From Candidatus Gastranaerophilales bacterium (GTDB lineage: Bacteria; Cyanobacteriota; Vampirovibrionia; Gastranaerophilales; Gastranaerophilaceae): a stretch of DNA of 64,000 bases. The notes beneath the pieces are model-generated. The model did not search any database, was not told the DNA's origin, and worked only from the letters and a program-made list of their open reading frames with translations. Positions 2,065 to 32,944 of this stretch are shown in pieces. Position numbers and translations under genes: made by a program. The stretch covers positions 35,363-99,362 of the forward strand of contig CANQRH010000003.1 in the NCBI GenBank assembly GCA_947626225.1, in the 5' to 3' direction. Position 1 is the first letter of the stretch. Each line of letters begins with the position of its first letter.

Positions 2065-2076
2065 AATGTAACATTT

Positions 2077-2246
2077 TGTATTTAATGTGATGTTGAAAAA
2101 TAAACCCTTTTACTGTAATAATTGCGGGTTGCAGATAAAAAAAATTCTAAAGAAAATAAGAAAATAAATTGAAAAAGAATATTTATAAAAATGTTTGTGT
2201 TATTATTATTTCGGCAGAAATGATTTAGTAAATCACATTAAATACA
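2077..2246. repeat. 15-bp perfect inverted repeats (tgtatttaatgtgat at 2077-2091, atcacattaaataca at 2232-2246) flanking a 140-bp segment
   Basis: Exact reverse complements read from the sequence. They lie in the divergent intergenic region between the DUF4422 gene (start 2064) and the GT2 gene (start 2284). Confidence 0.6.
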
Positions 2247-2283
2247 TACTGTTGCATTAAGAGAAAAGGATATTTCAATATCG

Positions 2284-3279: not shown

Positions 3280-4231
3280 TATAGAACCCGTGTTTTACAG
3301 AAGATACTTTCGCTATGGAGCTGAGATGCTCTATGCGTTTTTGCTGCAAAATTTCTTTTTATTTAAAAAAGGAAAATTTCTGAATCCGATTAAGAAAAAG
3401 GAATATTTTGATAAATTATGCCGGGAAGAAATAGTTAATTTCTATGAAAACGGATTTTTGAGAATACCGAAGGTTGATTTTGATATTACAACAAGATGCA
3501 CTCTGAAATGTAAATATTGTTCCAACATGATGCCAAAATTCAGACAAAACGGAAGTCATGTCGAGATGAGTTTTGACGACTTTAAATACATAATCGATGT
3601 TTTGTTTGATTCCAAGGGGGGGGGGCTAAACAGAATCGATATAATTCAATTGATAGGCGGCGAGCCCTTGCTTCATAAGCAGTTACCGGAGATTATAGAA
3701 TACGCAGCCAAAAACGATAAAATAGGAGTTATTAAAATCATCACCAATGCAACGATTTTGCCATCCGAAAAATTAATTGAAACAATAAAAAAATATAACG
3801 ATAAAGTCTATTTTTATATCAGTAATTATTCAACAAACCCCGAGCTTAAAGGCTTATTAAAATTTGAAGAATTTCAAAAGATACTTGACGAAAATAAAAT
3901 CAAATATCAAACGATGCAGGATTTGTCTTGGGACAAGGAGGGCGAATTTAAGGACTATCATTATGACGAACAAACTCTCAAACAGATGTTTGCTTCCTGC
4001 GTTCGATCAAGCTGCCTTTCCATTATCAACAACAAGCTTCATATATGCGCTAAATCCGCTTCGGGAAATGAGCTTGGGTTAATTGATGTGAAAGATTGCG
4101 TAAATTTAAAAGATAATCCTAATTTAAGACAAGATATTATTGATTTTTATAAAAAAGATTATTATGAAGCTTGTAAATATTGTGCGATCAGCGAAGAAAA
4201 AGTTATTCCCGCACAGCAAGTACAGATGTAA
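3254..4231 (+). CDS. radical SAM protein, paralogue 2 (carries a G10 tract, in frame)
   Basis: DFDITTRCTLKCKYCSN, GGEPLLH, IKIITNATILP and a C-terminal Cys cluster (YYEACKYC). Overlaps the GT2 stop by 26 nt. Confidence 0.8.
   Translation: MEELIKKYNIEPVFYRRYFRYGAEMLYAFLLQNFFLFKKGKFLNPIKKKEYFDKLCREEIVNFYENGFLRIPKVDFDITTRCTLKCKYCSNMMPKFRQNGSHVEMSFDDFKYIIDVLFDSKGGGLNRIDIIQLIGGEPLLHKQLPEIIEYAAKNDKIGVIKIITNATILPSEKLIETIKKYNDKVYFYISNYSTNPELKGLLKFEEFQKILDENKIKYQTMQDLSWDKEGEFKDYHYDEQTLKQMFASCVRSSCLSIINNKLHICAKSASGNELGLIDVKDCVNLKDNPNLRQDIIDFYKKDYYEACKYCAISEEKVIPAQQVQM
3616..3625 (+). repeat. homopolymer G10 inside radical SAM paralogue 2 (codons 121-124, aaG GGG GGG GGG cta)
   Basis: Counted directly. 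Paralogue 1 has no tract at the aligned position (LDNVLKLNLINISGGEPLL versus FDSKGGGLNRIDIIQLIGGEPLL). Confidence 0.95.
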
Positions 4232-4392
4232 AATTTAGGAAGCTTTAATCAAAGAGAGGAAATTAAAAATTATTTTATTTGATTTCCTCTTTCAATTCTT
4301 TTTGCCATATCCGTATGGCACCAAGCACAAGCTTCCGCATATTTTTTGAAAAATATTTTAAAATTTCTTTTGATAATTTAACATAATCATCT

Positions 4393-5328
4393 TTATATTT
4401 GTTCCCCGCAAGGCAGATTGTAAATAATATTATCACTATGGCAATAGTGACAAAATTGAGAATAATCTCTTGCATAATATTTTATGAGTTTATCAGTTAA
4501 ATCTTTAGCATTTTTTGCAGTTCTAATATTAACCACTTCTTCTTTTATCCCGTCGGAAAGTTCAAGATTTCTGTTAATATAAACGGAAATAGTGCAAGGA
4601 GTTATTTCACCTTCACATAGCATATTACAAAATAATCCCCAACATTTGTCATGAATAGGTTTAATTTTAGCGGGATCCTGAATGTCTTTATATAGTTCCG
4701 GCATGCTTTGAAAAAGGCCGTCAAAACCGTGAGGATTTGAATATGATATATTGTTTCTGATTAACAAATCCTTAAATTCATTATGTTTTACGGTAATGCC
4801 ATTTTTAATATTTTTTACGTTATTATAATTACTTATTTGAATTTTAAACTTTTTATTCTTCATAACTTTTAAAAGCTCATTTGAAGGCAAAATTGTGCAG
4901 TTTGAAGCAATGAAAACATGTTTAATCTGTCTTTTATTAAGTGCATACTGAACTTTTTTTGCAAGATTGTTATCTATAAGCGGTTCTCCGCCTACGAAAC
5001 CAAAGTAATCAACATAATCTACCGACTTTAACAATTTATCCAAATCCTTTTTAAATTGTTCAAAGGAAGTGTGCTTTAAATGAGTCTTATCATTAAAATA
5101 CGGAATAAAAGTATTACACTGTTTACAATTCATGGTGCATTTGGTAGTTACAACATATTCTAAACAAGGTATAACAGCTTTTCCGGTGAGAAAAAATCTC
5201 GTTTTTATAACTTTATAATATAAACGTTCAGGGGAAAATTTCTTCAGAAAATTTACAAATTTTAATTTAAAAGGGAAAGCAACTGCACAACCTTGGCCTG
5301 CAGTAAAATTTTTATATATTAATTTCAA
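4393..5328 (-). CDS. radical SAM protein, paralogue 3 (the listed ORF starts at TTG; the likely true ATG at 5368 is out of frame across an A9 tract)
   Basis: VVTTKCTMNCKQCNT, GGEPLID and a C-terminal Cys cluster (YSQFCHYC). See the tract at 5333-5341 and the SD/ATG at 5366-5385. Confidence 0.75.
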   Translation of the reverse strand: MKLIYKNFTAGQGCAVAFPFKLKFVNFLKKFSPERLYYKVIKTRFFLTGKAVIPCLEYVVTTKCTMNCKQCNTFIPYFNDKTHLKHTSFEQFKKDLDKLLKSVDYVDYFGFVGGEPLIDNNLAKKVQYALNKRQIKHVFIASNCTILPSNELLKVMKNKKFKIQISNYNNVKNIKNGITVKHNEFKDLLIRNNISYSNPHGFDGLFQSMPELYKDIQDPAKIKPIHDKCWGLFCNMLCEGEITPCTISVYINRNLELSDGIKEEVVNIRTAKNAKDLTDKLIKYYARDYSQFCHYCHSDNIIYNLPCGEQI

Positions 5329-5332
5329 ATTA

Positions 5333-5341
5333 TTTTTTTTT
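5333..5341 (-). repeat. homopolymer A9 (T9 on the + strand) at the 5' end of radical SAM paralogue 3
   Basis: Minus strand reads ATG AAC AAA ACT GAG TAT AAA AAT TTC AAA AAA AAA TAA. A8 or A11 would fuse this start to the long ORF. Confidence 0.95.
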
Positions 5342-5471
5342 GAAATTTTTATACTCAGTTTTGTTCATTAAAATCCTTTCTCATAAATTTCATTGTCATA
5401 ATAAGTTTTAAAACAATAAAGAACTATTTGATTTCCTAATTTCTACATAATATATCTAACTATATAATTAG

Positions 5472-5500
5472 ATTATATTAATAAGCAGTTAGATTGTCAA
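5472..5500 (-). promoter_or_regulatory. sigma70-type promoter, TTGACA-N17-TATAAT, upstream of radical SAM paralogue 3
   Basis: Minus strand TTGACA (5500-5495), 17-nt spacer, TATAAT (5477-5472). Confidence 0.5.
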
Positions 5501-5525
5501 GGAATAATCATTTCATAATCATCAA

Positions 5526-5759
5526 ATGAAACAGGAGTATATTTTAGATAAGGATAATGTAAGAAAATTAATTAAATCACTTACACTGTTTGAAGGCAAA
5601 ACACTTACACGTTTGAAGGTAGATATAAACCATAAATATAACAAAACCGATTCTCTTGAAAACCTAACAAACAAACTTCGAAATGGAACGATTAGAGTTT
5701 CTGAATTAATAGAAATTTTTAGTGTACTGGGATATGAATTAATTGTCCGTAAAAAATAA
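5526..5759 (+). CDS. small helix-turn-helix-like protein (paralogue of 46481-46696)
   Basis: KTLTRLKVDINHKYNKTDSLENLTNKLRNGTIRVSELIEIFSVLGYELI aligns with ITVKKLVQLYNMNNEHKFTPDGLSKKLRFNTLRYDEAKKLADSIGYDLI. The pattern is XRE-like. No good SD is visible. Confidence 0.45.
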   Translation: MKQEYILDKDNVRKLIKSLTLFEGKTLTRLKVDINHKYNKTDSLENLTNKLRNGTIRVSELIEIFSVLGYELIVRKK

Positions 5760-5760
5760 A

Positions 5761-7176
5761 TTATTTAAATCTGCGCATCATCTTAACAGCTTTATTAACG
5801 GCATGTTTTCCGAGCTTGCCTTTAAATCCGCCGAGTCCGCCCATGTTTAAATCAGGCATTCCGCCTTTAAATTTTGAAAACATACCCTTCATATCGCTCA
5901 TTCCCTTCATCATGGTGCGCATTTGTTCAAATTGTTTCACAAATGTGTTAACTTCCGAAAGCTCCATTCCGCAGCCTTTTGCAATACGTTTTTTACGGCT
6001 TGAATTCATCAAATCGGGATTTGAACGTTCTTCGGGGGTCATACTCGATATAAATACTTCCATTTTTTTGAATTGTTTTTCTCCTTCGTGAGAAATCAAT
6101 TCTCTGTCGTTTTTGCTTATATTCATTCCGGGAAGCATTCCCAAAAGCTGATCCATTGAGCCAAACATTTTCATTTGTTTTTGCATTTTTATAAAATCAT
6201 TGTATGAAAAATTGTTTTTGCTCATTTTTTCTTCAAGTTCGCGTGCTTGCTTTTCGTCAAAAACTTCCTGCGCACGTTCAACAAGCGAAACAATATCTCC
6301 CATACCGAGAATTCTTGATACCATACGTTCAGGGTAGAAATCTTCAAGAGCGTTCAGTTTTTCACCCGTCCCCGTAAGCTTAATCGGTTTTCCGGTACAG
6401 TAAGCAACGGACAAAGCCGCACCGCCTCGGCTGTCACCGTCAAGTTTTGTAAGTACAAGACCTGTCAAATTTAATTGAGCATCAAAGTTTTCAGCGACAT
6501 TAACGGCTTCCTGACCGGTCATTGCATCAATTACAAGCAATTTTTCGGCAGGTTTAAAAATCCTGTCTATTAACAAAAGTTCAGACATCATTTCCGTATC
6601 AATCTGTAAACGTCCTGCGGTATCAAGGATTATCGTATTAAACCCTTTTTCTTTTGCATAATCAATCGCACCGCTGACAATTTTTGTGACATCTTTGCAA
6701 TCCGGAATTGTAAAAACTTCGGTTTCGGTTTCTTTGCCGAGAGTTTTAAGCTGCGTGATTGCCGCCGGACGATAAACATCACAAGCCGCAAGCAGGGGAT
6801 TTCTTCCTTCTTTTTTAAGCTTGACCGCAAGTTTTGCACTTGATGTGGTTTTCCCCGACCCCTGAAGCCCGAGCATCATAATTAAATTCGGATTACCGGA
6901 AAAATCGAGCGGTTTTTGTTCTTTTCCGAGAAGTGAAACGAGTTCATCGTGAACAATTTTAACAAGCTGTTGTGAAGAATTAACACCTTCAACGATTTTT
7001 TCGCCTTCTGCTTTGTCTTTAACATTAGAAATGAAAGACTTGACAACACGTAAATTGACATCTGCTTCTAAAAGAGCACGCCTGATTTCGCGCAGAGCAT
7101 CCTGCATATTGTCCTGTGTAAGTTCTCCCGAACCATGAATTATATTTTGAAGTCTTTCACTTAAACTGTCGAACAT
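5761..7176 (-). CDS. ffh: signal recognition particle protein Ffh
   Basis: GLQGSGKTTSSAKLA P-loop, DTAGRL, TKLDGDSRGGAALS, and a Met-rich M-domain at the C-terminus. Confidence 0.95.
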   Translation of the reverse strand: MFDSLSERLQNIIHGSGELTQDNMQDALREIRRALLEADVNLRVVKSFISNVKDKAEGEKIVEGVNSSQQLVKIVHDELVSLLGKEQKPLDFSGNPNLIMMLGLQGSGKTTSSAKLAVKLKKEGRNPLLAACDVYRPAAITQLKTLGKETETEVFTIPDCKDVTKIVSGAIDYAKEKGFNTIILDTAGRLQIDTEMMSELLLIDRIFKPAEKLLVIDAMTGQEAVNVAENFDAQLNLTGLVLTKLDGDSRGGAALSVAYCTGKPIKLTGTGEKLNALEDFYPERMVSRILGMGDIVSLVERAQEVFDEKQARELEEKMSKNNFSYNDFIKMQKQMKMFGSMDQLLGMLPGMNISKNDRELISHEGEKQFKKMEVFISSMTPEERSNPDLMNSSRKKRIAKGCGMELSEVNTFVKQFEQMRTMMKGMSDMKGMFSKFKGGMPDLNMGGLGGFKGKLGKHAVNKAVKMMRRFK

Positions 7177-10257: not shown

Positions 10258-11073
10258 TTAATCACATTTATGCTTACCGTTCCAACTTAAATTATTGCAT
10301 TTTAAATAATCCATATTTTCATTATAAATCACCCATGCACTGCAAGCCAAACCATTCTTAGTACCATTATTATTTCCAAGACAACTTCCCTCAAATGAAA
10401 ATGTTGTTTCGTTTGTTGTTCCACAAGGAATGATACTATGTTCGGTTAAATAAAACAGAAAAATATCTTTTGAATAAGTATTTGGTGGTTTTGTACCATT
10501 AACATCATAAACTATATTAGCGTAAACCCGGGATAATTCTCCGTTTCCGCGACTGCTCGCAGCAGCATTTGATAAAACGGAAGAAACAATACCTATTGAA
10601 CTTCCGTCGGCAAGCAATGTTGATGCGTATTTATCAAAGTTTTTATCTTCATCACCATTAAGATAATATACCTTTTCAAAACCGCATGCTGTATGATTTT
10701 TAGAGTTATTGCAAATATTCAGTTTTTTTACATTTTTTAAAACCCTGTCACGAATTAGTATTGCGTTTACTGCATTATATGTTTCTTCATTATCCCAATT
10801 TTCATCCACTCTTCCTGCATCCCTCCCTGTAATCCCCCATTCGCCTGCCGTTCCGTAATCCAAAATCGCAAGCTGATACGCATTAGATAAAGTAGTGTAC
10901 ATTTTTTTGACTTTTGAAACTATAACTTTCTCTTTGTAATCTGAAATTAAAGTCGGAATAGTCAAAGCTGCAACCACACCGATTATACCGAGTGTGATTA
11001 AGACCTCTGCTAAAGTAAATGCTGTCCTTGGGGTTAAATTGCAGCCTAAATAATGCTTACGGGGGGGGGGCAA
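10258..11073 (-). CDS. prepilin-type N-terminal domain protein (pilin/pseudopilin-like) with a poly-C tract at its 5' end
   Basis: FTLAEVLITLGIIGVVAALTIPTLI class-III signal and hydrophobic helix. The listed ORF starts at TTG with no SD. The SD/ATG at 11094-11108 is out of frame (see tract). Confidence 0.75.
   Translation of the reverse strand: MPPPRKHYLGCNLTPRTAFTLAEVLITLGIIGVVAALTIPTLISDYKEKVIVSKVKKMYTTLSNAYQLAILDYGTAGEWGITGRDAGRVDENWDNEETYNAVNAILIRDRVLKNVKKLNICNNSKNHTACGFEKVYYLNGDEDKNFDKYASTLLADGSSIGIVSSVLSNAAASSRGNGELSRVYANIVYDVNGTKPPNTYSKDIFLFYLTEHSIIPCGTTNETTFSFEGSCLGNNNGTKNGLACSAWVIYNENMDYLKCNNLSWNGKHKCD
11061..11070 (-). repeat. homopolymer C10 (G10 on the + strand) in the 5' coding region of the pilin-like gene
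   Basis: Minus strand reads ATG TTT AAG AAA ATT ATT TTC CAT TGC CCC CCC CCC GTA AGC ATT ATT TAG. C11 or C8 would join ATG 11096 to the pilin frame. Confidence 0.95.
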
Positions 11074-11229: not shown

Positions 11230-12813
11230 TTAAGTATTATATACGGATTTTACAAGTTCTTTTTTCTGTTTTTCAAGTTTGTTTTCTCTTGCTTTACCTC
11301 CGAGAAGCTGGTAAGCGCAAGCAGTCAAAGTTTCACTGCACCCCTGAGTTGTAAATGCGGCTGATGCTATCAGAGCGGACGGATGCGTAAGAAGTCCGGT
11401 TGCCCCGAGTGTAAATCCTAAGACGGGATCGCTTGTGGGACCGGTTGCTATACCATGCCACTTCCCGCTGTATGCCTCATACTTCATCATATTTTCATTT
11501 GCATTTTTAAAGGTATTATCTTCTTTATCAATAATATTCTTTTTAACCAATTTGTTTCCGTTTTGCCCGAATAAAAATCTGGTACCTGCCATAGATGCCC
11601 AGCTTGAACCTGATGTACAAGATGCTACAACCATACCGAAAAGTCCGGCCATTGCAGCGAATTTCCCGCCCTTAACCAGTCTTTTCCCGAGTGAGGGTGC
11701 AAAAGCTTTTCTTAAACGATTTACACGCTCAAGAGTTCCGGCGTTTTTTGCCGCTTCCAAACGGTAATTTTTTACGAATCTTCTGGCTTTTAAAACATCT
11801 CTTGCATTTTCATATGTACCTGCAATCATAAAGCTTGTACCGATTCCGGCAATAGCACTTATTGCGGCGAGAATGCCGGCTTTTGCATTACCGAAACATT
11901 CCTTATCCTGAAAATAATCCTTTGCGGCGCCGGACATATCATCAACACTTCCGCTTAAAGTACTTAACAGTATTGGTGCAACGGAAAGCAGTAATGCCAT
12001 ACCTTTCTTGCCCTTAATCCTTGATTTAATATCGCTGAACGGATTTACCCAGCCTATTTTCATTTTGCTTAATTCTTTTTGCTCGGCTAATAACTGTGCC
12101 GGATTGTGAAGTGCTGCCTTTCTTTCTTTGTATGAAGATAATACTTCTTTTACACCGAGTATTCCCAAAACGGAAAGAAGAAGCGGAACTACTTTCTTAG
12201 AATCATTCCCCGCATCTGACAATTCCAAATGCTCCAGTTCACCCTGCGCAAATTTTAATGTATTATCTTTTAAATCTTTATTTTCCTGCTTTATAAACTC
12301 CGCCAAATCCGGTGAAATTTCATTCAATTCATCAAGAGTATTCTCATCAGGATTGAGAATATCATAAGTTTTATTCTGATAGCTTAAAGTTACATTATAA
12401 TAGTTATCAAACAACTCCTTTAATTTTAAGATTTTTTGTTTTTCTTCATCAGATATTTTCATTTTCCCGACTCTGTCGGCCACGGCTGCTTTGTCCTGAG
12501 AAAGCAGTTTGAACATATCTTTAACTCTTGCTCCGTAAATATTAACCCTGACAAATTTTAATAATTGTTTGAATTCCTCCGAATATTCTTTCGGGCTTGA
12601 TACATTGATAGAGGCACCTTCAGGAAGAACACTGCCGGCCTTTCCTTCCAGATATTCTTTCAAGAACATATTTGATTTGCCGTTAGTTTCGTATTCTCCG
12701 ATATCACTAAAGTCAAACAATAATTCGTTCCCGACTTGTGAATTATTTTTGCTGCCTGATATTTGGGTACGCTCAATATTACAAGACGGCGTACCGTCTA
12801 TCTTTATTGACAT
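11230..12813 (-). CDS. hypothetical membrane protein with Gly/Ala/Ser-rich hydrophobic segments, divergent from the giant gene
   Basis: Soluble N-terminal half, then segments such as VVPLLLSVLGILGV, GMALLLSVAPILLSTLSG, GILAAISAIAGIGTSFMIAG and FAAMAGLFGMVVASC. Confidence 0.6.
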   Translation of the reverse strand: MSIKIDGTPSCNIERTQISGSKNNSQVGNELLFDFSDIGEYETNGKSNMFLKEYLEGKAGSVLPEGASINVSSPKEYSEEFKQLLKFVRVNIYGARVKDMFKLLSQDKAAVADRVGKMKISDEEKQKILKLKELFDNYYNVTLSYQNKTYDILNPDENTLDELNEISPDLAEFIKQENKDLKDNTLKFAQGELEHLELSDAGNDSKKVVPLLLSVLGILGVKEVLSSYKERKAALHNPAQLLAEQKELSKMKIGWVNPFSDIKSRIKGKKGMALLLSVAPILLSTLSGSVDDMSGAAKDYFQDKECFGNAKAGILAAISAIAGIGTSFMIAGTYENARDVLKARRFVKNYRLEAAKNAGTLERVNRLRKAFAPSLGKRLVKGGKFAAMAGLFGMVVASCTSGSSWASMAGTRFLFGQNGNKLVKKNIIDKEDNTFKNANENMMKYEAYSGKWHGIATGPTSDPVLGFTLGATGLLTHPSALIASAAFTTQGCSETLTACAYQLLGGKARENKLEKQKKELVKSVYNT

Positions 12814-13014: not shown

Positions 13015-16000
13015 ATGGGATTCGACGACTTTTTTATAAGCAGTAACGGTAAAAAGGAACAGTTGAATAATGCAAAACATGGTGTACGAAGAGAACAGGT
13101 TGACAAAAAGTTCCACAATCTATTTGATGCATATGATATGAATGGTGACGGAACACTTGAAAGCGAAGAATTAGGCGGAGTATTTAAAGGTTTAACGAAA
13201 TATGCGGGATCAGATAAAACGCTTGATTGTACGGAAAATAAACAAGTTGCAAATCTTTTTGTAACTCAAGCAGGCATAGAAGATGCAGACTTTATGGGAT
13301 TTGTCCGTTCAGTTACGCAAGCGGCAGAAGATATTGTTGATTCAAAAGAGACCCCAACCGCTGACGGCGGGAAAGAAGTGACAACAAGATACAAAGACGG
13401 CACAGTCGAGACAATTTCTTATTATCCTGACGGGGGATACAAATTCAAAAAGTTGGAGCAAAAAGGTTCAACAACAACTAATTATTATACAATAGGTAAT
13501 AATTTAGATAAACATTATACTGTTGATGAGATAGAAAGCAGAGTAAAGGAAGCATACGACAGACGTGTTGCGGAAATAAAACAACAAGCTAAACAAAATT
13601 CGGGAATAGAAGGTCGTGGCATTATTCCAATTATACCGAACTATGAAGAATTTAAAAAAGGATATTTGCAGCACTTCAATATTAATTTGGGTAGTGACAC
13701 AAGGAACTTTGAAAGGCACGATTTTGAATTATCCGAACGAGGAAAGTCAGACATAGCGGTTCGTGATTTTGTATTAAATCACTATGTGGAAACGCACAAA
13801 GCTGCTCAAGCAGCACTTGAGTCAATGGGTATTTTAGACGATGTCGGTGCGGCAATAAATGCGGGAGCCGGTGAACTATGGAATACCATTAAAAATGTAT
13901 GGAAAGGAACAGACGAAGAATACCAAAACTTTTATGAATTATCTAAAAAATTTGAGCCGAACTACAACAAAGCATTAAGAGAAAGCGGCAGCTTGGATGT
14001 AATGAGAAGTAAACCCGAAATGTATTTCAGGGATTTTGAAACTGATTTCAAAAAAGATATGGGTCGGCAATACAATTTAGAAAATTCAGTTCAATTCCAA
14101 CAAAGTGCAGAACGATACCAAAATGCTCAAATATTGAAACAGAGAATTGATATTTTAAACAAAGCAATGCAAGAGATTAGGATGTATCAATCAGAGCAAG
14201 ATGCACTGACTTATGCACCGGCCCAAAATGAAGGCTTAAATCCTGCAAGTCATATTATAAGTGCGAACAAATTACTTTTACAATATTTTGATAACGATCA
14301 GGAAGCTGTAGATATGCTTCTTAACGGAGCGATAGGGAATACTCAATCCGTAATAACAGCGATAAAAGGTCTTGCATCAGATACACAGAAGATGTTTGAT
14401 TCGGTAACAGGCGGTAAAAGTTTTGATGAAATAAAGAATGATTACCAAACACAATACAGAGGGATATACGGAACGGATTTAGTACCGGACGAACTGACAG
14501 AAAAAGTAATGGATGCGAAAGCCACGGGTGGGATGTTAAAACTGGCGGCAATAACCGTAATATCCGTTTTAATTACAAAGAGTCCCGTAATGGCAGAGCT
14601 TTCAGCGGCTGCAGGGAGTGCGGAAGCAACGGGAGCGGCGGCAAATTTAGTGAGAACTCTGGTTACAAAATATGGTCAAACGGCAGTACAACAGGGTATA
14701 AAATTTGCAATGACCAGCGGAACTCTGGCCACGGATGTTGGATTGACTTTATTAAACCAGGCAACAAGTGAACGCGGCATAAATGGTGAAGAACTATGGG
14801 AAAGTACCAAAGGTTCAGCCAAATATATATTCTTTGGTGCATATGTAGGTGCGCCTTTGGCACAAGGAGTTTCAAAGGCTCTCGGAAAGGTAGGAGCAAC
14901 CGGAAGATTATTTGAAGGCGGGACAAAAACAGCCAACGGGGCAATTCAAACAACAAGCATCACGGGAGATAAATTAATACAAAACTTTATGAAAGGCGGC
15001 AATAAAGTTCTGACAACAGGCGGTGCGTTTTTGACGGATGTAGCGGCATTTACGGGTTTAGAAGTAGCAACAGAGGGAGCGAATTTAAAAGATGCCCTTT
15101 CAGAACAGGGACAAATGCTTTCTAAGTTAAAATTAATGAACCACGTATTAGAATATATGCTTGGTGCTAAAGCTCATACTGCAACATCGAGAGCAAATAT
15201 AGATGCGGCAATTGAGAAATCCGGAGTAAAGAATTGGAATATAAAAGAGATAAAGACACCGCAAAATACTCAATATGTAGTAGATATAGACGGATTACCG
15301 GTGGGTAAATTTGAAGATGCAAACCAACTAGCTGCGGCAATGCTTGAAAGAGTAACTGCAAACTTTAAAACACCACAGTCATATGAATTAAATGATAAAC
15401 CTGATGAACCGATAGCGGAAGTTAAGCCTGAAACAACACAAACAACGACTGAATCTCATATAGATGCAAATGGCAGATTAGAGAAAGGCTATATTATAGA
15501 TAAGAGAAGCAATCAACCGATAAAAGTTGATACGGAAAATCTTCAAATTGAAAAGAACTCAGCAGTACAAGGCAAAGTTGGTTTTATTAGTATAAGTGAT
15601 AAATTTGGTAATTCTCTGGGAAGTGTTTCATATAACTTAGTGGAAGTTGATGGGCAGAAATCTCTACATTTTGAAGGTTTAGTTTCTAATGTAGAGGGTG
15701 CCGGAATTGGAAGCAGATTAATCCAGGAGTTAACGTTAGTAAGCAGAGACCTGGGTGCAGAAGGCAGATTAACTGCAAGTGCAAGTCCATCGGCTAATAG
15801 GGGTGGTAAACTTACAAATATTGAATTCTATTATAAATTAGGATTTAAAGCTGTTGATCCTGCTAAGGATGCAGCTATCAGAGAATATATAGAAAGAGGT
15901 GAAGAGGTTCCTCTTCAACTTAATATATTTACCGATATTGAGCTAAATCCTAAATTCTCAAAAATTAACAAAATAAAAGGTATTGATGAATTTTCTTCAC

Positions 16001-19000
16001 TGGTTACGAACTGCAAAAATCTAAGTGACGAAGATTTAAGCAATTTGTATATTTATTACAAAAATTACGAACAAGAATGTATCAAGAATAATGAACAAAT
16101 TCCGGACATGAAACAATCCGGCTTTGACAAGTTGATGGAAGAGATTAATGCCAGAAAAATTGACATAAAAGATTTGACCAATCCTGCGGTTGAGCCGCCG
16201 AAAACAGGAGTAAAAACTGAAGTAAAAGAAGATAAGCCTGTTGCCCGAATAAATACGGGTGCATCTGAAATGCAAGAAGCTGAAATGATAAAAAGATATA
16301 ATGAGTTACAGGAAGAATCACAAAAAACAGGAGTGGTTAGCGAAGAATTACTTGCTCTTACATTGGAACTGAATGACAAAGGATATCATTTTAAAGATGG
16401 AAAATTAGATTTTAGTTATAATGAAAATCAAACAAATATGCCGAATTCTGATGTTTCAAAAGCAGAATTTATAAAAAAATTAAAAGAATACGGTATTGAT
16501 GAAATAGCTCTTGAATCCCTTGAATATAATGTAAATCGTATCAATATGAATCTTTTAAATGAGTTAAAAGATTCTCCTGAACTTTTAAATTCAACTTTTG
16601 GAGTTAATATACTTTGTGATGTAAAACCTGAAGATGAGCCGGCAAAAATTGAGGCATTTAAGCTGCTTAAAGATGTTGAGTTATTATCTCCCGACGCAAA
16701 AATTTTAATGATTAATAAAGCCCGAAAAGATAACTTGGATGCCGTTAAACAAAATATTGAAGATTTCAATTATATTAAAGCGTCAGGTATAGATCCGTCA
16801 TTAATTTCCGAATACGGACTTGCTATGACAGTAGATAATATGCATTTTAATCGGGAAATGTTTGATTTACTGAAAGACAATGCAGAATTTGCGGATAAAC
16901 CTTACCTGTCTTTTAACGTAAATCCGGAGGATATTCCCGCAAAGACTGAAATTTATAATTCATTAAAAGACAACAGTTCTTGTCCTATTGAACAGAAAGT
17001 TTCTATTCTTAAAAGATGCAATAAAGACAATTTATCCAAAATAAAAATGGTTGAATCGTACAGAGCCGATGGAATGAATGAACGCTCATTAAAAAATTTA
17101 TATAAGAAATTAGATGATATTGACGAGAATACATTAGCCGCTGTTAAGGATAATGCAAGTTTACTCGATTACTATGAAGTTTCAGATATTATGGACATTA
17201 AACCTGAAGATTTATCTGCAAAAGCGAAAATCGCATCAGAGATGTTCTTATTTTCATTAAAACAAGATAGTAAAATAGCTCAAGAATTAATCAAACAGAC
17301 AACTAAAGATAATATTGAAACAATCCGCAAAAAAATGGAGATGATACAAGCATTTTCTCCATTTACAATAACACAATACGGTTTTGTAAAAAATGATGTA
17401 ATTAGTGACATTCAAAACGGTTCTATTGATGTTGATGTTGTATCAGATTTATTTAAAACAATTAAAAATGATACTGAATTATTAAAATCCATTTCTTCAA
17501 ACAAAGATTTAAAAATTCTTAAAGGTGTAACCGCTGAAGATGTAAAAGCTAAAAAAGAAATGTACGACTTTATGTTATCACAAGCTGAAAAAAGAATGTC
17601 GAATAGTAAATCTAATCTTTCAAACTTAGACAAAGCAGATATACTAAGCAGAGTTACACGAGATAATATAGCTGAAATTAAAGAAGAAATTTCTCTGGAT
17701 TATAGAATTGCTGAGGCTAAAAGCTTGGAAGAACCGCAATTCACACAAAAAGAAGAGCTTTTGCGTAAAAATAAATTAAGAACAATAAATGAAAGTATTG
17801 ATTTGCAGCAACATTTATCATTTGATGAGAAAAATCAAATAAAAGCATTATTTGAAAATGCCAAAACAATGGAAGAATTGGATGCTAAAAGTAATGCATA
17901 TACAGCTATAGTAAATAAAGGAGATGGATATTTATGGTCATTAGGTGATCTTCCAAAAACATTGGATGCAATAAAAATTAAAGAACAAGCAGATGTTATT
18001 GATGCCATTGGAATAGATAACACAAGTTATTTTGACGGTATTTTATCCGAAAATTTTGCAAGAAATTATAAATACTTAAAACAAGTTGATTCTTCATTTA
18101 GACCTGTAGGAGCAGGTATATTCAATCGTTATGCACATTATTTAAAATTTGATGATATTAAATCACAAGAAGAATTTGAAATGTTTAAAGAACTTTGGAA
18201 TGATCCAAAAATTAATAATAGTTCAGTAATATCCCGAATTGTTTCTGATAAAAATAAATATAATGCATACAAAAAGCTTGCATCACATCCTGATTATTTA
18301 AGAATGAATAACGAAGATATCTCTCTTGTTATCAACGCCATCCTACACGGTAAAGTTTCGGATATAACTGATGTTAACAGTATGGCTAAAGATTTAAGAA
18401 TACAAAACATACAAAGCGAATTAAAAGAATACAGATATGATTTGACTCGTGAGAGATACAATTGGGAGAGCCCCGCAACTGAAGAAGACATACAAGGTTT
18501 AACCGGTACTTTCCCTAATTTGAATAGAGCAAAATTTGAAAATTATACAGGAAATACTGTTAAGACTATTCGGGAAGTAATTCAACGTAATACAAATCTT
18601 TCCTTCAACGAAATTGAATCTGTATTAAACAGTGATGTTGATTTTTCAAACTGTGATAAACGTGATTATGTATTGAGCAAATGCTCTCCTGAAATTGCAT
18701 TTAGATTAGCATTCTGTAAAGATGAAGATTTTAATAAAGTTGTAGATGTTCTTGAAAAACGTCCTGAAATGCTTTTAGAAAAATTTGACAGTTCAAGTTT
18801 TGATAAAATGCTCAAAATGTCAGACAAAGAATGGGAAAACTTTAAAGTTTCAATCAAAGACAGAGGTGAAACTGAATTTAACGAAGCTCAATATGCCGCA
18901 GATATTCAGGCTAAGTTAGATGCAGGCTTTGAGCTTGATATGAGTACATACAGAACAATTGAGAGACAAAGAAGATTAGAAGCAAACAGCAGATTAGGCG

Positions 19001-28261: not shown

Positions 28262-31200
28262 TTATGCGTAATATTTTCTGTACAAACGATTTCTTGCTTC
28301 GGTATCAAGTTCAATAATTCTTTTTGCTTTTGCGGAAAGGGAAGTTTCGGGACGTGTTTTTTTCTTAGATTGTTCTGTATTGGATTGATTCATTATACCC
28401 ATAACACCGCTTACAACGTTCATAGCTTCGCCCGTTGTTTCTAAAATTTTATTCAATTTTTGACGTCTTTCAGATTTAATCTGAGCCTTACTTTTCTCTG
28501 TTTTAGAAGAATCGGGTTTCGTATTTTTAAGTTCATCGTCCGTTTTATTATCTGTTGTATCAGTAGGCTGTTGATCAACTTTTTCGCTATCGCCTATCGG
28601 TGCTTTTTCATTTTTCTCTGTAATATTCTGTTGTTCGTTATTTTGATTGTTTTGCGGATTATCGCCCGTTGAAGCTTCCGGTGCTTTGATAATATCTTCT
28701 GATGTTGTCTCAGATACTGCAGGCTGGTTGTTATTTGTCTGATTGTTAGCTGCATTTTGAAGTTCCTGTTGAGCCTGTGCAACTTCTGCAGGTGACATGC
28801 CTGTTTTATCGGAAAGTTCAACAATTTTATTTTCACTTGTTTTTGCTATAGATGCTGCTTCTTTTACGGCCGGCGAATTAGCGTCCGTATTAACAACGTT
28901 ATCCGGAATATTTGAATTGTCGTTTTTCGTTTCATCTTTTTTAGCATTTTGAGTTTCTTTGTTTTTCTTCGCTTCAGCTTTTTCTGCCTCTTTATTTTTC
29001 TTCGCTTCGGCTTTTTCTGCTTTTTTAGCTTCTTTTGATGACTGCTTTTCGGTTTCAGTTTTGTCTTTACCTTCAGTTTTGTTGCCGTCATTATTTTCAT
29101 CACCGTTATTTTCACCGTCATTGCCTTCGGCATCAGAGCCTTTAGGTCCGCTCATTAACGAATATGCACTTGATGCAAGGCTCATTGCTCCGCCTACCGT
29201 GCCTAAAATGTTTGCAATTTTTTCATTTCCGCCGAATTCGCTCATCAATTGGCTGGTAGATGACATTGCTGTACCGACAACACCTGCGATTTGCATAACA
29301 CCGTTCATACCGCTTTGTATACCGCCTGCAAGACTGCCTGCTGCTCCTGTTATTGATTGTGCTACACCTGCAACAGTAGCAATTTTACTCATTATACCGT
29401 TAGCTTCTTTACCTTGAACTGCTCTGACATTGTTTACCATTTGGGCTGTATTAGATACAATGCTAAGTCCCTGAGTAATACCTGTCATTACAGGTCCCAT
29501 AGCTGCTCCGGCACCTGTTACTGAAGTTGCTACGGATAATGCGGTAGATGCCAATCCCATCAATGCGCCGGCTAAATTACCGTTAGCAAGGTTAATTATG
29601 GCTTTTGTAACTCCGCATGCCGCTACACCTATTGTACCGACATTTATTAATATCGCACCTGCTGATGAAATAGCGGCACCGGCTGCTGCCGTAAACGGGT
29701 TTGATAATAATGGCGGAGCAATAATCTCAACCATTATCGTACCGGTACTGAGGGTAATATTGAATATGTTTTCCTGAATACCGACAATGCCTAATTGTTT
29801 TGCAAGTTTTTTCTGTTTTTCCTGCTCTTTCTTTTCGGCTTCTTTGATTTTTTTATCTCTGATTTTATTTTTCTTTTCAAATTGTTTATATCTTTTGTTA
29901 TTAGTTTTTTGTAAATTTTTCAGTTTTGCTTGATTTTTGGTAACTTTGCTGTTTGAAATTGTAAATTGATTAGCAAGCATTTCAATTTCCATGCCGTTTG
30001 CCTGCAATTCCTGTTCATGATTTGAACCACCGCCTGCCTGCATGGAAAATCCCGATGCAGCAGCCTGCTGACCGTTCATGGAAGCACCGACAGCCTGAGC
30101 ACTTGCGCCTGCAGCTTCATCTTCAGCCATCATTTGTTCATTAGCGGTTGAAAGTTCTTCATAACGGGCAAGCATTTCAGCTTGTTTTTTAATTTCTTCT
30201 TCAGATTCTTTATTAAGTTTTTCAATTTCTTTCTGATCCTTCTTCATTTCTTTTTCTAACTGCTTAGATTCTTTAAGAAGGGTTTTTTCATCTTTTTCGG
30301 TGTCGGATAATACTTTTTCGGAATCATTGGCGCTTTCCTGACCGTCGGCTGCAACATCGTCTACTGTATCTTGAGCTTTGTCGGTATCCATATTTTCTTC
30401 TTTATCTTCTTTTTTGGTTTCACCGGTTGAATCATTTCCGCTCAGATCACCGACTTCCTGAGTTGCATCTTGTGAATCTTCAACGGCATCATCAGGATTT
30501 TTTTCAGCTTCGGTTGTCGATACTTCGGCTGTTTCATCACCTGCATCCTGTGCTTCTTCAATCTCTTGTTCAGCATCCTGCGGTTCGGCAGATTCTGTAC
30601 TTTCAACAACTTCAGCAGCTTCATCAGTGCCGACAGGAGTATCAGCCGCAACAGCAACGGCTGTTCCTTCTTCCGGAGCAGATGCTGTTGTCATTGTCGG
30701 TGCTGCGGTTGTACCGGTTGTTACGGCTGCAGAGTCTGTAGTTTCACCTTCTGCCCCCGCTGCCGCTTCAGTCGGTTCGCCTTGAGCTTCTCCCGTTTCT
30801 TCGCCTTGTGCATTTTCTTGCATTACGTCTTCTGATTCTTCGCCGGTAACTACGGACATTTTATCTTTTACCGCGCTTAACGAATCTATTGCCCCAGGAA
30901 TTGCTTCTCCGGCTTTTTTAACCGAAGCATCAGCTTCATCAACCATTGAATCATCATCTGATACCACCATTGCCGCAGTACCGATAGCTATACTGATGAA
31001 ACCTTTCATTATCGTTGCTATACCGAGATTTATCAGCGCGATGGCATGTCCGTAAGCAAACGGTACGGAAAGTAATGCCATACCCATTTGATTTAACATG
31101 TTACCGAATTCTACCGTTCCGCCGCCTATCATTATCAAGGTTCCGCCGCAGTTGTTAATAAACTGCATTCTTTCGTTGTAATCAGGAATTTCTTTTTGAG

Positions 31201-32944
31201 CCAGCTGTTGATTAGCTTCAAAGTTTCCGGCTTCTTCACCGATTTTGGTATCAATAGTATTGATTTCTTTTGATAAACCGGAAGTTGTATCAGCTTTATC
31301 CTGAACGGTTTCCTGCTGAATTTCGGCAATACGTGCATTGTTGGCTACGATAATTTCTTTTTGCTGTTTAATTTTTTCTTTTGTTTCATCGTCGTATTCG
31401 GGTTCTTCTTCATCTTTGTCTTTTTTACCCTGAATAATCTTTTTGTCAACTTCTTCAGCGGACATACCGGTTATATCTTCGAGTTCTTTTGTAGCTTTTT
31501 CATTTTCTTTTTCAAGATTTGCAATTTCTTCCTGACGGACAGCTTCTCTTTCTTCAAATTCACCGATAACCTTAGTAACAATTTTATCGACAGTTTGTGC
31601 AATTTTAGTATCCTTTTGTCCTGCAAGTATAAATTTCAACTGTTCTTTTATCATTGCTTTTGATTCTTCGTTTATCGCATTTGCTTCATCTATCAAACGA
31701 AGAACACTTTCATCAGTTACAACGAATGAAGTCTTTTCTTCTTTATTTTCTGTACTGTCTTCCGCATTTTCATCGCTTCCTTCTGCAGCGCCTTCCTGCA
31801 TTTCAACTTCTTCTCCTTCGCCTTCAATCGTTTCAGCGGAGCCGACCTTGATATCAAGAACTTCTCCGATATCCATTGCCGAAGCTTGTGATTCTTCCAT
31901 GTATTCTTTCGTATCATTACCTATTTTGACTGAATCATTAGCAAGAGATTTACCCTGAATCATTGCGACAATTGCTCTGAAAAATCCGATTTGACCTGCT
32001 ACTTCTTGGCGGGTGTGTTTACGATTTGTTTTAGAAATGTAATAAGTAAGTGTATCACCTATTTCAACAGTTTCATCGGCAAGTTTTTCACCAAGTGCCG
32101 CAATAATATTTATTTCGGTCAGTTTGTTTGAAAGTTCAGTATCGTTAAGTTTCATGCCTTTGTTGTCATCTTCTTTGGCATTCAACTGTTTTGAAAGTTC
32201 TTCATAACGTTTGCTTTCGCTGTCACTCAAGGCATTGCCGTTGTTGATTTTATCCTGAAGCGACTTCCATTCTCTTACCATACCTTCGTATTCTTCAAGT
32301 GAACTTCTGATATCTTTCTGATTTTCCTGAAAAGCTTTTTTCTTCTTTTCCTGTTCGGGTAGAATTTCTTGAATTAAGTCATCAACTTTTTCGTTTGTTT
32401 GTTCACATTCTTCAATATTTTTCTTTGCTTTAGGGATAAGAGCTAAAAAGGGTTCTTTTTCCGTAGGTTCTTCGGCATTTTCATCCGTTTCCTCAGCACT
32501 GTTAATATTTGCTCCGGAAGATTCATAAATCGTATGAGCGATGTCCAAGACATCCTGAGGAATGCACACACCTTCATTTTCCATTTGAATAATTTCTTCA
32601 GCGGAATATTGCGCCCATTGGGGATCCATAATTAAGCCGTTTTCTTTGGCATAAGCATCAAGCGTATATTTTATTTGATTTAAAACATTTTGTACATCAG
32701 AATAATTGATGATGTATTCACCGTCTTCATTTAAATAACCTTCCAATTCCAAGCCGTAGCCTGAAGGTACAACTATATTATAACCCGTTTCATCCTTGTA
32801 ATATTGCTCAAACTCACTCTTTTGCTTATCATCCATATTCTCGTAAAGAGTCAAAGCATCATCATACGAAATCTTTTTACCGTATATTTCAAGGTAAAAA
32901 TTTTGAAATATTTCAAATTTGTTTGGTATTCCGCTGATTGCCAT
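28262..32944 (-). CDS. large (1560 aa) hypothetical protein with coiled-coil/acidic low-complexity regions and two Gly/Ala-rich hydrophobic blocks
   Basis: Uninterrupted 4.7-kb ORF. Blocks CGGTLIMIGGGTVEFGNMLNQMGMALLSVPFAYGHAIALINLGIATIMKGFISIAIGTAAMVV and IIAPPLLSNPFTAAAGAAISSAGAILINVGTIGVAACGV...GGAMSLASSAYSLMSG. Long E/K/D/T-rich stretches. Confidence 0.8.
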   Translation of the reverse strand: MAISGIPNKFEIFQNFYLEIYGKKISYDDALTLYENMDDKQKSEFEQYYKDETGYNIVVPSGYGLELEGYLNEDGEYIINYSDVQNVLNQIKYTLDAYAKENGLIMDPQWAQYSAEEIIQMENEGVCIPQDVLDIAHTIYESSGANINSAEETDENAEEPTEKEPFLALIPKAKKNIEECEQTNEKVDDLIQEILPEQEKKKKAFQENQKDIRSSLEEYEGMVREWKSLQDKINNGNALSDSESKRYEELSKQLNAKEDDNKGMKLNDTELSNKLTEINIIAALGEKLADETVEIGDTLTYYISKTNRKHTRQEVAGQIGFFRAIVAMIQGKSLANDSVKIGNDTKEYMEESQASAMDIGEVLDIKVGSAETIEGEGEEVEMQEGAAEGSDENAEDSTENKEEKTSFVVTDESVLRLIDEANAINEESKAMIKEQLKFILAGQKDTKIAQTVDKIVTKVIGEFEEREAVRQEEIANLEKENEKATKELEDITGMSAEEVDKKIIQGKKDKDEEEPEYDDETKEKIKQQKEIIVANNARIAEIQQETVQDKADTTSGLSKEINTIDTKIGEEAGNFEANQQLAQKEIPDYNERMQFINNCGGTLIMIGGGTVEFGNMLNQMGMALLSVPFAYGHAIALINLGIATIMKGFISIAIGTAAMVVSDDDSMVDEADASVKKAGEAIPGAIDSLSAVKDKMSVVTGEESEDVMQENAQGEETGEAQGEPTEAAAGAEGETTDSAAVTTGTTAAPTMTTASAPEEGTAVAVAADTPVGTDEAAEVVESTESAEPQDAEQEIEEAQDAGDETAEVSTTEAEKNPDDAVEDSQDATQEVGDLSGNDSTGETKKEDKEENMDTDKAQDTVDDVAADGQESANDSEKVLSDTEKDEKTLLKESKQLEKEMKKDQKEIEKLNKESEEEIKKQAEMLARYEELSTANEQMMAEDEAAGASAQAVGASMNGQQAAASGFSMQAGGGSNHEQELQANGMEIEMLANQFTISNSKVTKNQAKLKNLQKTNNKRYKQFEKKNKIRDKKIKEAEKKEQEKQKKLAKQLGIVGIQENIFNITLSTGTIMVEIIAPPLLSNPFTAAAGAAISSAGAILINVGTIGVAACGVTKAIINLANGNLAGALMGLASTALSVATSVTGAGAAMGPVMTGITQGLSIVSNTAQMVNNVRAVQGKEANGIMSKIATVAGVAQSITGAAGSLAGGIQSGMNGVMQIAGVVGTAMSSTSQLMSEFGGNEKIANILGTVGGAMSLASSAYSLMSGPKGSDAEGNDGENNGDENNDGNKTEGKDKTETEKQSSKEAKKAEKAEAKKNKEAEKAEAKKNKETQNAKKDETKNDNSNIPDNVVNTDANSPAVKEAASIAKTSENKIVELSDKTGMSPAEVAQAQQELQNAANNQTNNNQPAVSETTSEDIIKAPEASTGDNPQNNQNNEQQNITEKNEKAPIGDSEKVDQQPTDTTDNKTDDELKNTKPDSSKTEKSKAQIKSERRQKLNKILETTGEAMNVVSGVMGIMNQSNTEQSKKKTRPETSLSAKAKRIIELDTEARNRLYRKYYA
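28957..29022 (-). repeat. 2 x 33-bp tandem repeat inside the 1560-aa gene (encodes KEAEKAEAKKN twice)
   Basis: + strand ctttgtttttcttcgcttcagctttttctgcct / ctttatttttcttcgcttcggctttttctgctt. Confidence 0.85.

Follow-up and report, generated by a model that had tools for sequence, protein, structure and literature searches.

What does a gut bacterium do with a protein of 3224 amino acids (aa) that bears no export signal and strings together a calcium-binding loop, a hydrophobic region, an acetyltransferase-like core and two large duplicated modules? The question is raised by a gene on a 64,000-nucleotide stretch of contig CANQRH010000003.1 (assembly GCA_947626225.1), referred to here as the window, from Candidatus Gastranaerophilales bacterium. 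Gastranaerophilales are non-photosynthetic relatives of cyanobacteria, common and uncultured in animal and human guts. We are confident that the gene is one member of a giant, polymorphic, multi-enzyme family, in which a conserved N-terminal region, here called the chassis, is followed after residue ~800 by exchangeable cargo. A first-pass annotation, made from the letters of the window, had described the domain chain as unprecedented-looking: it was right insofar as no Pfam, NCBIfam or PADLOC family spans the whole architecture, but the gene is not unique, having more than 100 giant relatives in Gastranaerophilales.

A search of 5.8 billion proteins returned at least 111 clusters of giant proteins, 1800-5500 aa long, that have the N-terminal ~800 residues in common, and the 111 relatives align with the query essentially over aa 1-800 only. 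The full chassis is present in 91 proteins, and what follows it sorts into 36 cargo architecture groups; by their last 350 aa, the proteins fall into a few recurrent types (51, 15, 12 and 11 members), the smallest of these being the pair of GHKL-zincin modules with which the present gene ends. A second subtype shares aa 1-200, its hydrophobic region being just 23-26% identical. Most of the relatives' cargo has no Pfam match, and what is recognised includes a C3-like ADP-ribosyltransferase (ART; E 4e-12) together with GNAT, HD, adenosine deaminase, Zeta/P-loop kinase and radical SAM domains. Because the window's own gene for Ffh, the signal recognition particle GTPase (5761-7176, - strand), matches Pfam Zeta_toxin at E 7e-7, 'Zeta toxin' matches in this cargo may mean only generic P-loop kinases or NTPases. 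Six orthologs of the giant gene are 76-87% identical to it across ~2160 residues, and close orthologs (86-92% identical) differ through whole-domain swaps at aa ~800: the insert that follows the chassis here is missing from P0003-P0007, and in P0002 an unrelated insert with an HEFVH motif takes its place. The pattern, read from sequence comparison, points to recent domain swapping.

All family loci that carry an organism name come from Candidatus Gastranaerophilales metagenome-assembled genomes (MAGs), and the other loci come from gut or rumen MAGs. Profile searches of the same protein set with the family and module alignments (A3 and A2), in which the 8000 candidates sharing most words were scored, returned close relatives or fragments only, with no member outside Gastranaerophilales, to which the family so far appears to be restricted; cluster look-ups gave no informative names. 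Neither the chassis nor the module had a tblastn match among 50,697 GenBank phage records, the chassis had none among 72,556 PLSDB plasmids, and IMG/VR holds a relative on 1 contig among 2.9 million; given this near-total absence from phage, plasmid and IMG/VR collections, an origin from a phage or plasmid was rejected. Whole-protein scans against Pfam and NCBIfam gave sub-threshold EF-hand and GNAT matches only, PHROGs gave a single short match in the GHKL region (E 2e-5, to a PHROG of unknown function), and sequence searches of the PDB with single segments and profiles recovered nothing other than the EF-hand. A literature search on giant proteins or polymorphic toxins of Gastranaerophilales found nothing relevant, and a preprint on 'giant genes' mentions neither Melainabacteria nor Gastranaerophilales nor GHKL. 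The giant-protein family and its chassis are undescribed.

The gene itself is intact and no accident of assembly. As the first-pass annotation had it, the protein is encoded by a single open reading frame (ORF), whose 3224 codons contain zero internal stops; the identical protein (100%) is found on five assembled contigs with matching neighbours, and Tandem Repeats Finder detected no tandem DNA repeats in the gene, hence none that could have collapsed the assembly. Codon-level comparison with the closest ortholog, L001, indicates purifying selection throughout, with ratios of nonsynonymous to synonymous substitution rates (dN/dS) of 0.03-0.30 in each domain (Table 1). The parts listed by the first-pass annotation were likewise all recovered: a canonical EF-hand loop, a Gly/Ala/Thr-rich hydrophobic region, a GNAT-like core, four degenerate tandem repeats and two large duplicated C-terminal modules, as well as the absence of an N-terminal signal peptide and of a lipobox.

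Within the chassis, the EF-hand loop DMNGDGTLESEE occupies aa 41-52, and of 111 relatives, 108 conserve its pattern of D1, N/D3, D/N/S5, G6, L8, E9 and E12. On the window protein by itself the Pfam EF-hand family scores 19.2 bits, below its gathering cut-off of 25; the family profile, searched against the PDB, retrieves EF-hand proteins over the full lobe (secretagogin, calmodulin and related, E 2e-5), and in an AlphaFold2 model helices 31-40 and 50-55 flank the loop. In the same model, with a predicted local distance difference test score (pLDDT) of 66 overall and of 70-90 for aa 1-500, a hairpin at the N-terminus leads into the helices of the EF-hand; a beta-sheet comes next (aa 107-160 and 223-239), then long helices (aa 241-500), the helices of the hydrophobic block and, at aa 740-782, a small alpha/beta domain; in the beta-hairpin repeats of the sheet, D117, G118, Y137, P138 and G140 are invariant across the family alignment. 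The N-terminus is hydrophilic: hydrophobic windows begin only at aa 498, and the first 71 residues contain no Cys. Two candidates were discarded: an N-terminal myristoylation motif (MG...), since residue 6 is Phe, and Foldseek matches of the chassis to the coiled coils of SMC, JetC and dynein, which had template modelling scores (TM-scores) of ~0.07 and represent long-helix noise.

The hydrophobic block is the most constrained segment of the gene, and it is only marginally hydrophobic. It holds four hydrophobic segments, of which aa 503-521 alone exceeds 1.6 on the Kyte-Doolittle scale in 19-residue windows (1.74), the other three reaching 1.04-1.11; these three weaker segments contain Asp, including a near-invariant Asp574 within segment 2. 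On a crude Hessa-scale sum the best 19-aa window stands at +2.8, compared with zero or below for a major facilitator superfamily (MFS) transporter encoded in the same stretch of DNA. Such a profile would be more in line with a region that is peripheral or inserts conditionally than with a constitutive anchor, and with Hessa-type values this weak, membrane insertion is something that we infer.

Beyond the chassis, the gene-specific insert is probably a GNAT acetyltransferase domain: Pfam Acetyltransf_7 matches the window protein below its cut-off (E 0.017, 15.9 bits against 27), a segment of P0084 with 53% identity to the region scores above the cut-off for Acetyltransf_1 (26.7 against 20.7), and the acetyl-CoA pyrophosphate motif A (Q/R-x-x-G-x-G/A) can be read in the sequence as NVEGAGIGSRL at aa ~891-901. 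The middle region that comes next contains four repeat units, marked by the motif (P/A)EDxxAK at aa 1205, 1304, 1397 and 1507, with 28-32% pairwise identity and 9 invariant columns. These ~950 aa and the two C-terminal modules recur together as a cassette behind other N-termini or none (P0119, P0125, P0129). Giants of up to 6024 aa (P0112, P0113, P0116, P0122, P0127) carry the tandem module pair behind N-termini unrelated to the EF-hand chassis, so at least one further type of giant-protein chassis exists.

The two modules, of ~550 aa each, match one another over residues 1997-2569 and 2684-3223 (~35% identity, E 6e-59). Among 1.84 billion representatives, a profile of the module recovers 636 clusters (50% identity), of which many are stand-alone proteins of 515-880 aa; the few named by their source are called 'hypothetical protein', and the organisms named are Berkelbacteria, of the candidate phyla radiation (CPR), and Nanoarchaeia (DPANN). 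None of 10 stand-alone homologs scanned has a Pfam family above cut-off, and HATPase_c, HSP90 or similar Pfam/NCBIfam families match neither these 10 nor the window protein. This GHKL-plus-zincin module family is widespread and undescribed.

An AlphaFold2 model of the module, built from 65 sequences, has a pLDDT of 90.5, and its N-terminal half takes the Bergerat (GHKL) fold: the best Foldseek matches in the PDB are TRAP1/Hsp90 (E 4e-8), T6 topoisomerase (topo) II, topo VI-B and MORC2, with probabilities of 1.00 for TRAP1, topo II and topo VI-B and of 0.92-0.97 for MORC2. TM-scores are low (~0.27) because the domain arrangement differs. In a library of viral structures the module's matches range in E from 6e-16 to 1e-6 and include phage proteins that are uncharacterised (E 6e-16) and 'histidine kinase-like ATPases' of RIIA type (E ~5e-7). 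Invariant residues (module numbering) are R80, Q84, N85, D88, G139, G142, E143, G144, W168, G250 and R303; among these, G139, G142, E143 and G144 make up a G2 box that aligns with GGFGLGSK of RIIA. By their predicted fold the modules fall within the GHKL superfamily, without belonging to any of the sequence families curated for it. At the C-terminal end, ~100 residues make up three strands and then an HExxH helix (model strands 462-493, helix 502-516), in which H515 is nearly invariant across the family. We call this part zincin-like, on the basis of the motif and of borderline fold and sequence matches: Foldseek pairs it with selecase (E 0.036, probability 0.97), the A2 sequence profile gives a sub-threshold match to Wss1p (E 0.19), and one module homolog matches WLM below the cut-off (E 0.0014, 19.2 bits against 26). 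Matches of the A2 profile to de novo TIM barrels in the PDB were spurious. The HExxH motif is present in copy 1 and lost in copy 2, an asymmetry that repeats in P0006, P0008 and P0010, whose module sets are 29-39% identical, and that can also be read in the sequences of P0047 and P0119.

Two side observations concern these modules. The linker between them shows unusually low synonymous divergence from the ortholog (dS 0.08 versus 0.29-0.40 elsewhere; dN/dS ~0.8), and its basic stretch ILKRFFKKIFGRKK resembles a calmodulin-target or lipid-binding peptide; relatives are basic at the same place, and possible partners of the stretch are the N-terminal EF-hand pair and membranes. On Berkelbacteria contig L007, a stand-alone homolog (3593-6003) lies directly 3' of a gene fusing helix-turn-helix and HSP20 domains, with a HicAB pair upstream and a peptidyl-prolyl isomerase gene downstream, a context that hints at a protein-quality-control or stress role of the module family. 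The surroundings of the other stand-alone homologs are inconsistent; one adjoins CRISPR-Cas9 (L013).

Table 1. Parts of the giant gene in the window, with dN/dS against ortholog L001
Feature	Position in window	Strand	Basis or remark	dN/dS
Complete gene, 3224-aa protein	13015..22689	+	stop codon included; apparently monocistronic	
Conserved chassis, aa 1-800	13015..15414	+	shared by at least 91 giant proteins	
Chassis ahead of the hydrophobic block, aa 1-497				0.15
EF-hand pair region, aa ~26-104	13090..13326	+	canonical Ca2+ loop at 13135-13170	
Beta-hairpin repeats, Y-x-D/N-G motif, aa 107-160	13333..13494	+	family alignment A3; AlphaFold2 strands 107-160, pLDDT >80	
Gly/Ala/Thr-rich, marginally hydrophobic helical block, aa 498-720	14506..15174	+	hydropathy, dN/dS; 98% aa identity to L001	0.025
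Gene-specific insert, probable GNAT, aa 802-1056	15418..16182	+	core ~15562-15909; motif VEGAGIGSRLIQEL at 15691-15732	
Middle region, aa 1057-2009	16183..19041	+	no family or structure match; four ~100-aa repeats at 16540-17754	0.30
Module 1: divergent GHKL-fold domain, middle domains, zincin-like domain	19042..20739	+	AlphaFold2, Foldseek, invariant residues	0.11
Module 1, N-box ARDLIQNFYDGNG	19276-19314	+		
Module 1, G2 box AGQHGEGSK	19453-19479	+		
Module 1, HETSH, aa 2520-2524	20572-20586	+		
Inter-module linker	20740..21081	+	basic amphipathic stretch at 20941-20982	
Module 2: paralogous GHKL-fold module	21082..22686	+	N-box 21304-21342; G2 box 21481-21507	0.10
Module 2, HExxH lost: ILSRVNYA	22540-22563	+		

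What such a protein might do can be approached from its chassis and its cargo. We tentatively favour the reading that it is a lineage-specific, polymorphic multi-enzyme effector, whose chassis inserts conditionally into membranes and delivers the cargo to another cell. Soluble-then-inserting toxin domains are described as marginally hydrophobic with Asp within. The weakly hydrophobic helices of the chassis, with their conserved acidic residues, would behave like the conditional membrane-insertion regions of large toxins and bring the protein onto or through a membrane, Ca2+ binding by the EF-hand being a possible switch, after which the cargo would act in a cytoplasm. The cargo folds (GNAT and GHKL here, ART and radical SAM in relatives) normally use acetyl-CoA, ATP, NAD or S-adenosylmethionine, so a cytoplasm, be it the producer's or that of another cell, is where they would be expected to work. 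Because GHKL proteins act as nucleotide-driven dimers, the two GHKL modules may pair within the polypeptide into a pseudo-dimeric, nucleotide-driven clamp with one active protease site, kept by copy 1 alone, which could cut clients or process the polyprotein. We favour a toxin-like logic because conservation is concentrated in the hydrophobic block, because the cargo is highly polymorphic and includes a C3-like ART, and because an ordinary anchor would need more hydrophobicity than the block offers; the lack of a downstream immunity-like gene would fit a non-kin or eukaryotic target. We regard as rather improbable the bolder proposal that the chassis is a previously unknown delivery device, a Ca2+-switched, self-inserting translocation domain that moves megadalton-scale enzyme arrays into bacterial or host cells without known secretion signatures, with the GHKL-zincin pair as its ATP-driven unfolding and processing engine.

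Several results weigh against delivery to another cell. Scans with Pfam and NCBIfam turn up neither RTX repeats nor an autoprocessing cysteine protease domain (CPD) nor any trafficking domain of a known kind, and around the seven family members and five stand-alone module genes inspected there is no conserved gene for a partner, immunity, chaperone or secretion function. In 3 of 11 chassis sequences no 19-aa window lies at or under even a lenient Hessa-type cut-off of +5, so the block may not enter the membrane at all; AlphaFold2 models the block at a pLDDT below 50, and Foldseek finds no meaningful structural relatives of the chassis. The cassette also occurs without any chassis, in P0119, and in CPR, DPANN and other genomes the stand-alone modules are encoded by single chromosomal genes of an ordinary kind, which suggests a cell-resident function for the module cargo. 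The nucleotide-binding site is divergent as well: the N-box reads R-D-x-x-Q-N-F-x-D, with the Asn and the last Asp invariant and the position of the catalytic Glu taken by Asp in at least 90% of the 65 sequences, and the G1 box reads I-S-G-x-G, in which the adenine-binding Asp is not evident. With the Mg-binding Asn and the G2 loop kept, the modules may plausibly hydrolyse ATP.

The points above bear in part on two readings in which the protein never leaves its cell. The main rival to delivery, possible though on balance doubtful, is a resident hub of stress response or immunity: helical hairpins would tether it to the cytoplasmic face of the inner membrane with both termini in the cytoplasm, and an EF-hand sensing Ca2+ influx or membrane damage (e.g., upon phage injection) would activate the attached enzymes, RIIA/Hsp90-like GHKL-zincin clamps included, on nucleotides or proteins. 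An even number of hydrophobic segments (four), the missing signal peptide and cargo folds that normally use cytosolic cofactors would all suit such a hub, as would a cassette that exists without the chassis, the lack of export genes nearby and the chromosomal location of stand-alone modules, one of which (P0142) has an N-terminal hydrophobic stretch and some of which adjoin HicAB and an HSP20 gene, or CRISPR-Cas9. The relatives' cargo (adenosine deaminase, HD, radical SAM, P-loop kinase, ART, GHKL) is nucleotide-centred, and these same types also occur in anti-phage systems. The module is similar in fold to RIIA-type GHKL proteins of phages, and T4 rIIA carries an annotation as membrane integrity protector; RIIA orthologs constitute a poorly understood phage counter-defence system (PMC7824862). 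However, PADLOC gives no match, the neighbours are housekeeping genes that form no recognisable defence island, multi-enzyme arrays of up to ~5500 aa are unusual among defence proteins, and the hydrophobic segments are too weak for ordinary constitutive anchors, while the extreme constraint on the block exceeds what a simple anchor would need. The other reading within the cell is that of a soluble cytoplasmic giant enzyme or chaperone-protease, in which the block is a buried helical core rich in small residues and the whole is a scaffold joining GNAT and GHKL-zincin parts by a logic like that of sacsin; we consider this unlikely. The best Hessa-type sum of +2.8, family members without a transmembrane-grade window, the absent signal peptide, TRAP1/Hsp90 as the closest solved folds across several domains, the Berkelbacteria homolog between an HSP20-domain gene and a peptidyl-prolyl isomerase gene, and P0119, which is entirely without the chassis, agree with a soluble protein, but aa 503-521 reaches the Kyte-Doolittle value given above, AlphaFold2 packs no confident globular core from the block, and one chassis combined with 36 unrelated cargo sets, a C3-like ART among them, is left unexplained.

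Two further readings carry far less weight. A polyvalent protein of a phage, prophage or conjugative element would be delivered with the invading DNA and processed by its own zincin peptidases, and a zincin-like domain in a multi-domain design, along with ART domains in relatives, are both hallmarks of that class (PMC5512222); the next gene downstream is a tRNA gene, a relative is present on one IMG/VR contig, and there are fold matches to phage proteins besides the PHROG match. This is nonetheless very improbable, as phage or conjugation genes are missing within at least 10 kb in the window and at the other loci, the phage and plasmid records searched gave no tblastn match, the IMG/VR contig is a single one in millions, and GHKL and transmembrane elements go unmentioned for polyvalent proteins in PMC5512222. 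The first-pass annotation had suggested a membrane-inserting or contact-delivered multifunctional effector or a surface organiser. The first half of that suggestion is reasonable in the form of a membrane-interacting multifunctional effector, with the caveat that the block is marginally hydrophobic; the second fits poorly, because the recognised cargo folds normally use cytosolic cofactors. To a surface organiser or adhesin outside the cell we in fact give next to no credence: large size, internal repeats and nearby genes for pilin-like and other hydrophobic proteins speak for it, and against it stand the lack of a signal peptide, lipobox, adhesin-type repeat or wall-anchoring domain, recognised domains that are enzyme folds normally in need of acetyl-CoA or ATP, and neighbours that are neither homologous to the giant protein nor conserved beside other members.

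Comparison with known systems leaves the tentatively favoured effector without an established class: in design the protein resembles MARTX toxins, polymorphic toxins and polyvalent proteins, and it lacks defining features of each. With MARTX and large clostridial toxins it shares giant size, the lack of a Sec signal and of a detectable immunity gene, an exchangeable array of enzymatic effectors, and a conserved region with Gly-rich or weakly hydrophobic helices of the kind proposed to carry cargo across a membrane. Unlike these toxins, it has no RTX or A/B/C glycine-rich repeats, CPD, glucosyltransferase or combined repetitive oligopeptides (CROPs) in Pfam and NCBIfam scans, which also reveal no type I secretion system (T1SS), acyltransferase or holin genes among its neighbours; its conserved part is N-terminal and bears an EF-hand, and homology was not detected. 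Zhang, Aravind and colleagues reportedly characterised polymorphic toxins, in 2012, as a conserved N-terminal trafficking region followed by a variable C-terminal toxin. One conserved N-terminal region with alternative C-terminal sets in 36 architectures, ART cargo and recent domain swapping are in keeping with such toxins, whereas the missing downstream immunity gene, the absence of detectable PAAR, LXG, RHS, TPS or MIX trafficking domains and the arrangement of several enzymes in series rather than as a single terminal toxin are not. Many enzymatic domains on one polypeptide, a zincin-like metallopeptidase that may process it, and ART recall polyvalent proteins (PMC5512222); differences are the position of the giant gene among chromosomal housekeeping genes, its absence from phage and plasmid collections and the conserved EF-hand and hydrophobic chassis.

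The modules, too, have relatives in fold rather than in family. T4 RIIA-type proteins combine an N-terminal GHKL ATPase with a variable C-terminal domain (PMC7824862), and the modules match predicted RIIA-like structures, their N-box and G2 box aligning with those of T4 RIIA; the sequence relation is not significant (hhalign of alignment A2, E 0.035, probability 1.5%), so that the likeness stays at fold level, and the modules differ in having a zincin-like C-terminal domain and in standing in tandem within a giant cellular protein. Hsp90/TRAP1 and the GHKL clamps (topo II/VI-B, MutL, MORC) likewise place middle domains after a Bergerat-fold domain, but the modules have Asp in place of the N-box Glu, no G1-box Asp is apparent in them, Pfam HATPase_c and HSP90 go unmatched and, as noted, TM-scores are low. 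Sacsin is a giant protein with repeated Hsp90-like modules; module duplication within one giant polypeptide is common to both, and the DnaJ and HEPN parts are lacking here. With its three terminal strands and the HExxH helix after them, module 1 resembles Wss1/WLM and selecase-type minigluzincins, but these matches are all below significance, a third zinc ligand could not be identified and copy 2 has lost the motif.

A family that spends 6-16 kb per gene on a conserved chassis with dozens of alternative enzyme sets bears the signature of an arms race, in bacteria about whose interactions with hosts, neighbours and phages almost nothing is known. The analysis also exposes an unannotated GHKL-plus-zincin family whose members reach into CPR bacteria and DPANN archaea and which has relatives at fold level in phages, among them RIIA, whose mechanism is still poorly understood. 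Working out the chassis or the module could yield a new principle of effector delivery or immunity, and a function for many 'hypothetical' giant genes of gut metagenomes.

The window is otherwise ordinary chromosome, with genes for CstA, a prepilin-like protein, tRNA-Gln, NIF3, CoaBC, Gmk, an MFS transporter, an RNase T-like exonuclease, Ffh and GlyS in a housekeeping-type setting. A 200-nt intergenic region of its own precedes the giant gene; 280 nt of non-coding DNA follow it, and then tRNA-Gln on the - strand, with no partner gene after it on the + strand. Flanks vary between genomes, including that of the 92%-identical ortholog. The sole flanking similarity to the L001 locus is a gene at 10258-11073 (- strand) for a type IV pilin-like protein of 271 aa that has a prepilin N-terminal methylation motif; a homolog also lies upstream of the L001 giant gene.

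Two neighbours, both on the - strand, had been said by the first-pass annotation to contain hydrophobic blocks like that of the giant protein, a claim that did not survive beyond composition: the best BLAST match has an E of 0.017, the block profile scores negative on both, and neither is conserved beside other family members. One, of 527 aa (11230-12813), is encoded by a gene transcribed in divergent orientation to the giant gene, has three hydrophobic segments and matches no family; the other, of 1560 aa (28262-32944), contains long stretches of acidic, coiled-coil-like sequence together with two marginally hydrophobic blocks rich in Gly/Ala/Ser/Thr (aa ~610-660 and ~1090-1260), with no Pfam match and no meaningful PHROG match. 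PHROG searches of the pair were uninformative. Elsewhere in the family, the contig of member P0052 (L016) encodes, within 7 kb of it, a 272-aa protein (24379-25197) with a domain of AvrB_AvrC, a family of type III effectors from plant pathogens, along with an EF-hand protein of 188 aa (23023-23589). Near the start of the window, at 293-5328, three radical-SAM genes stand together with a family-2 glycosyltransferase gene and a DUF4422 gene, possibly a cluster for surface polysaccharide or peptide modification.

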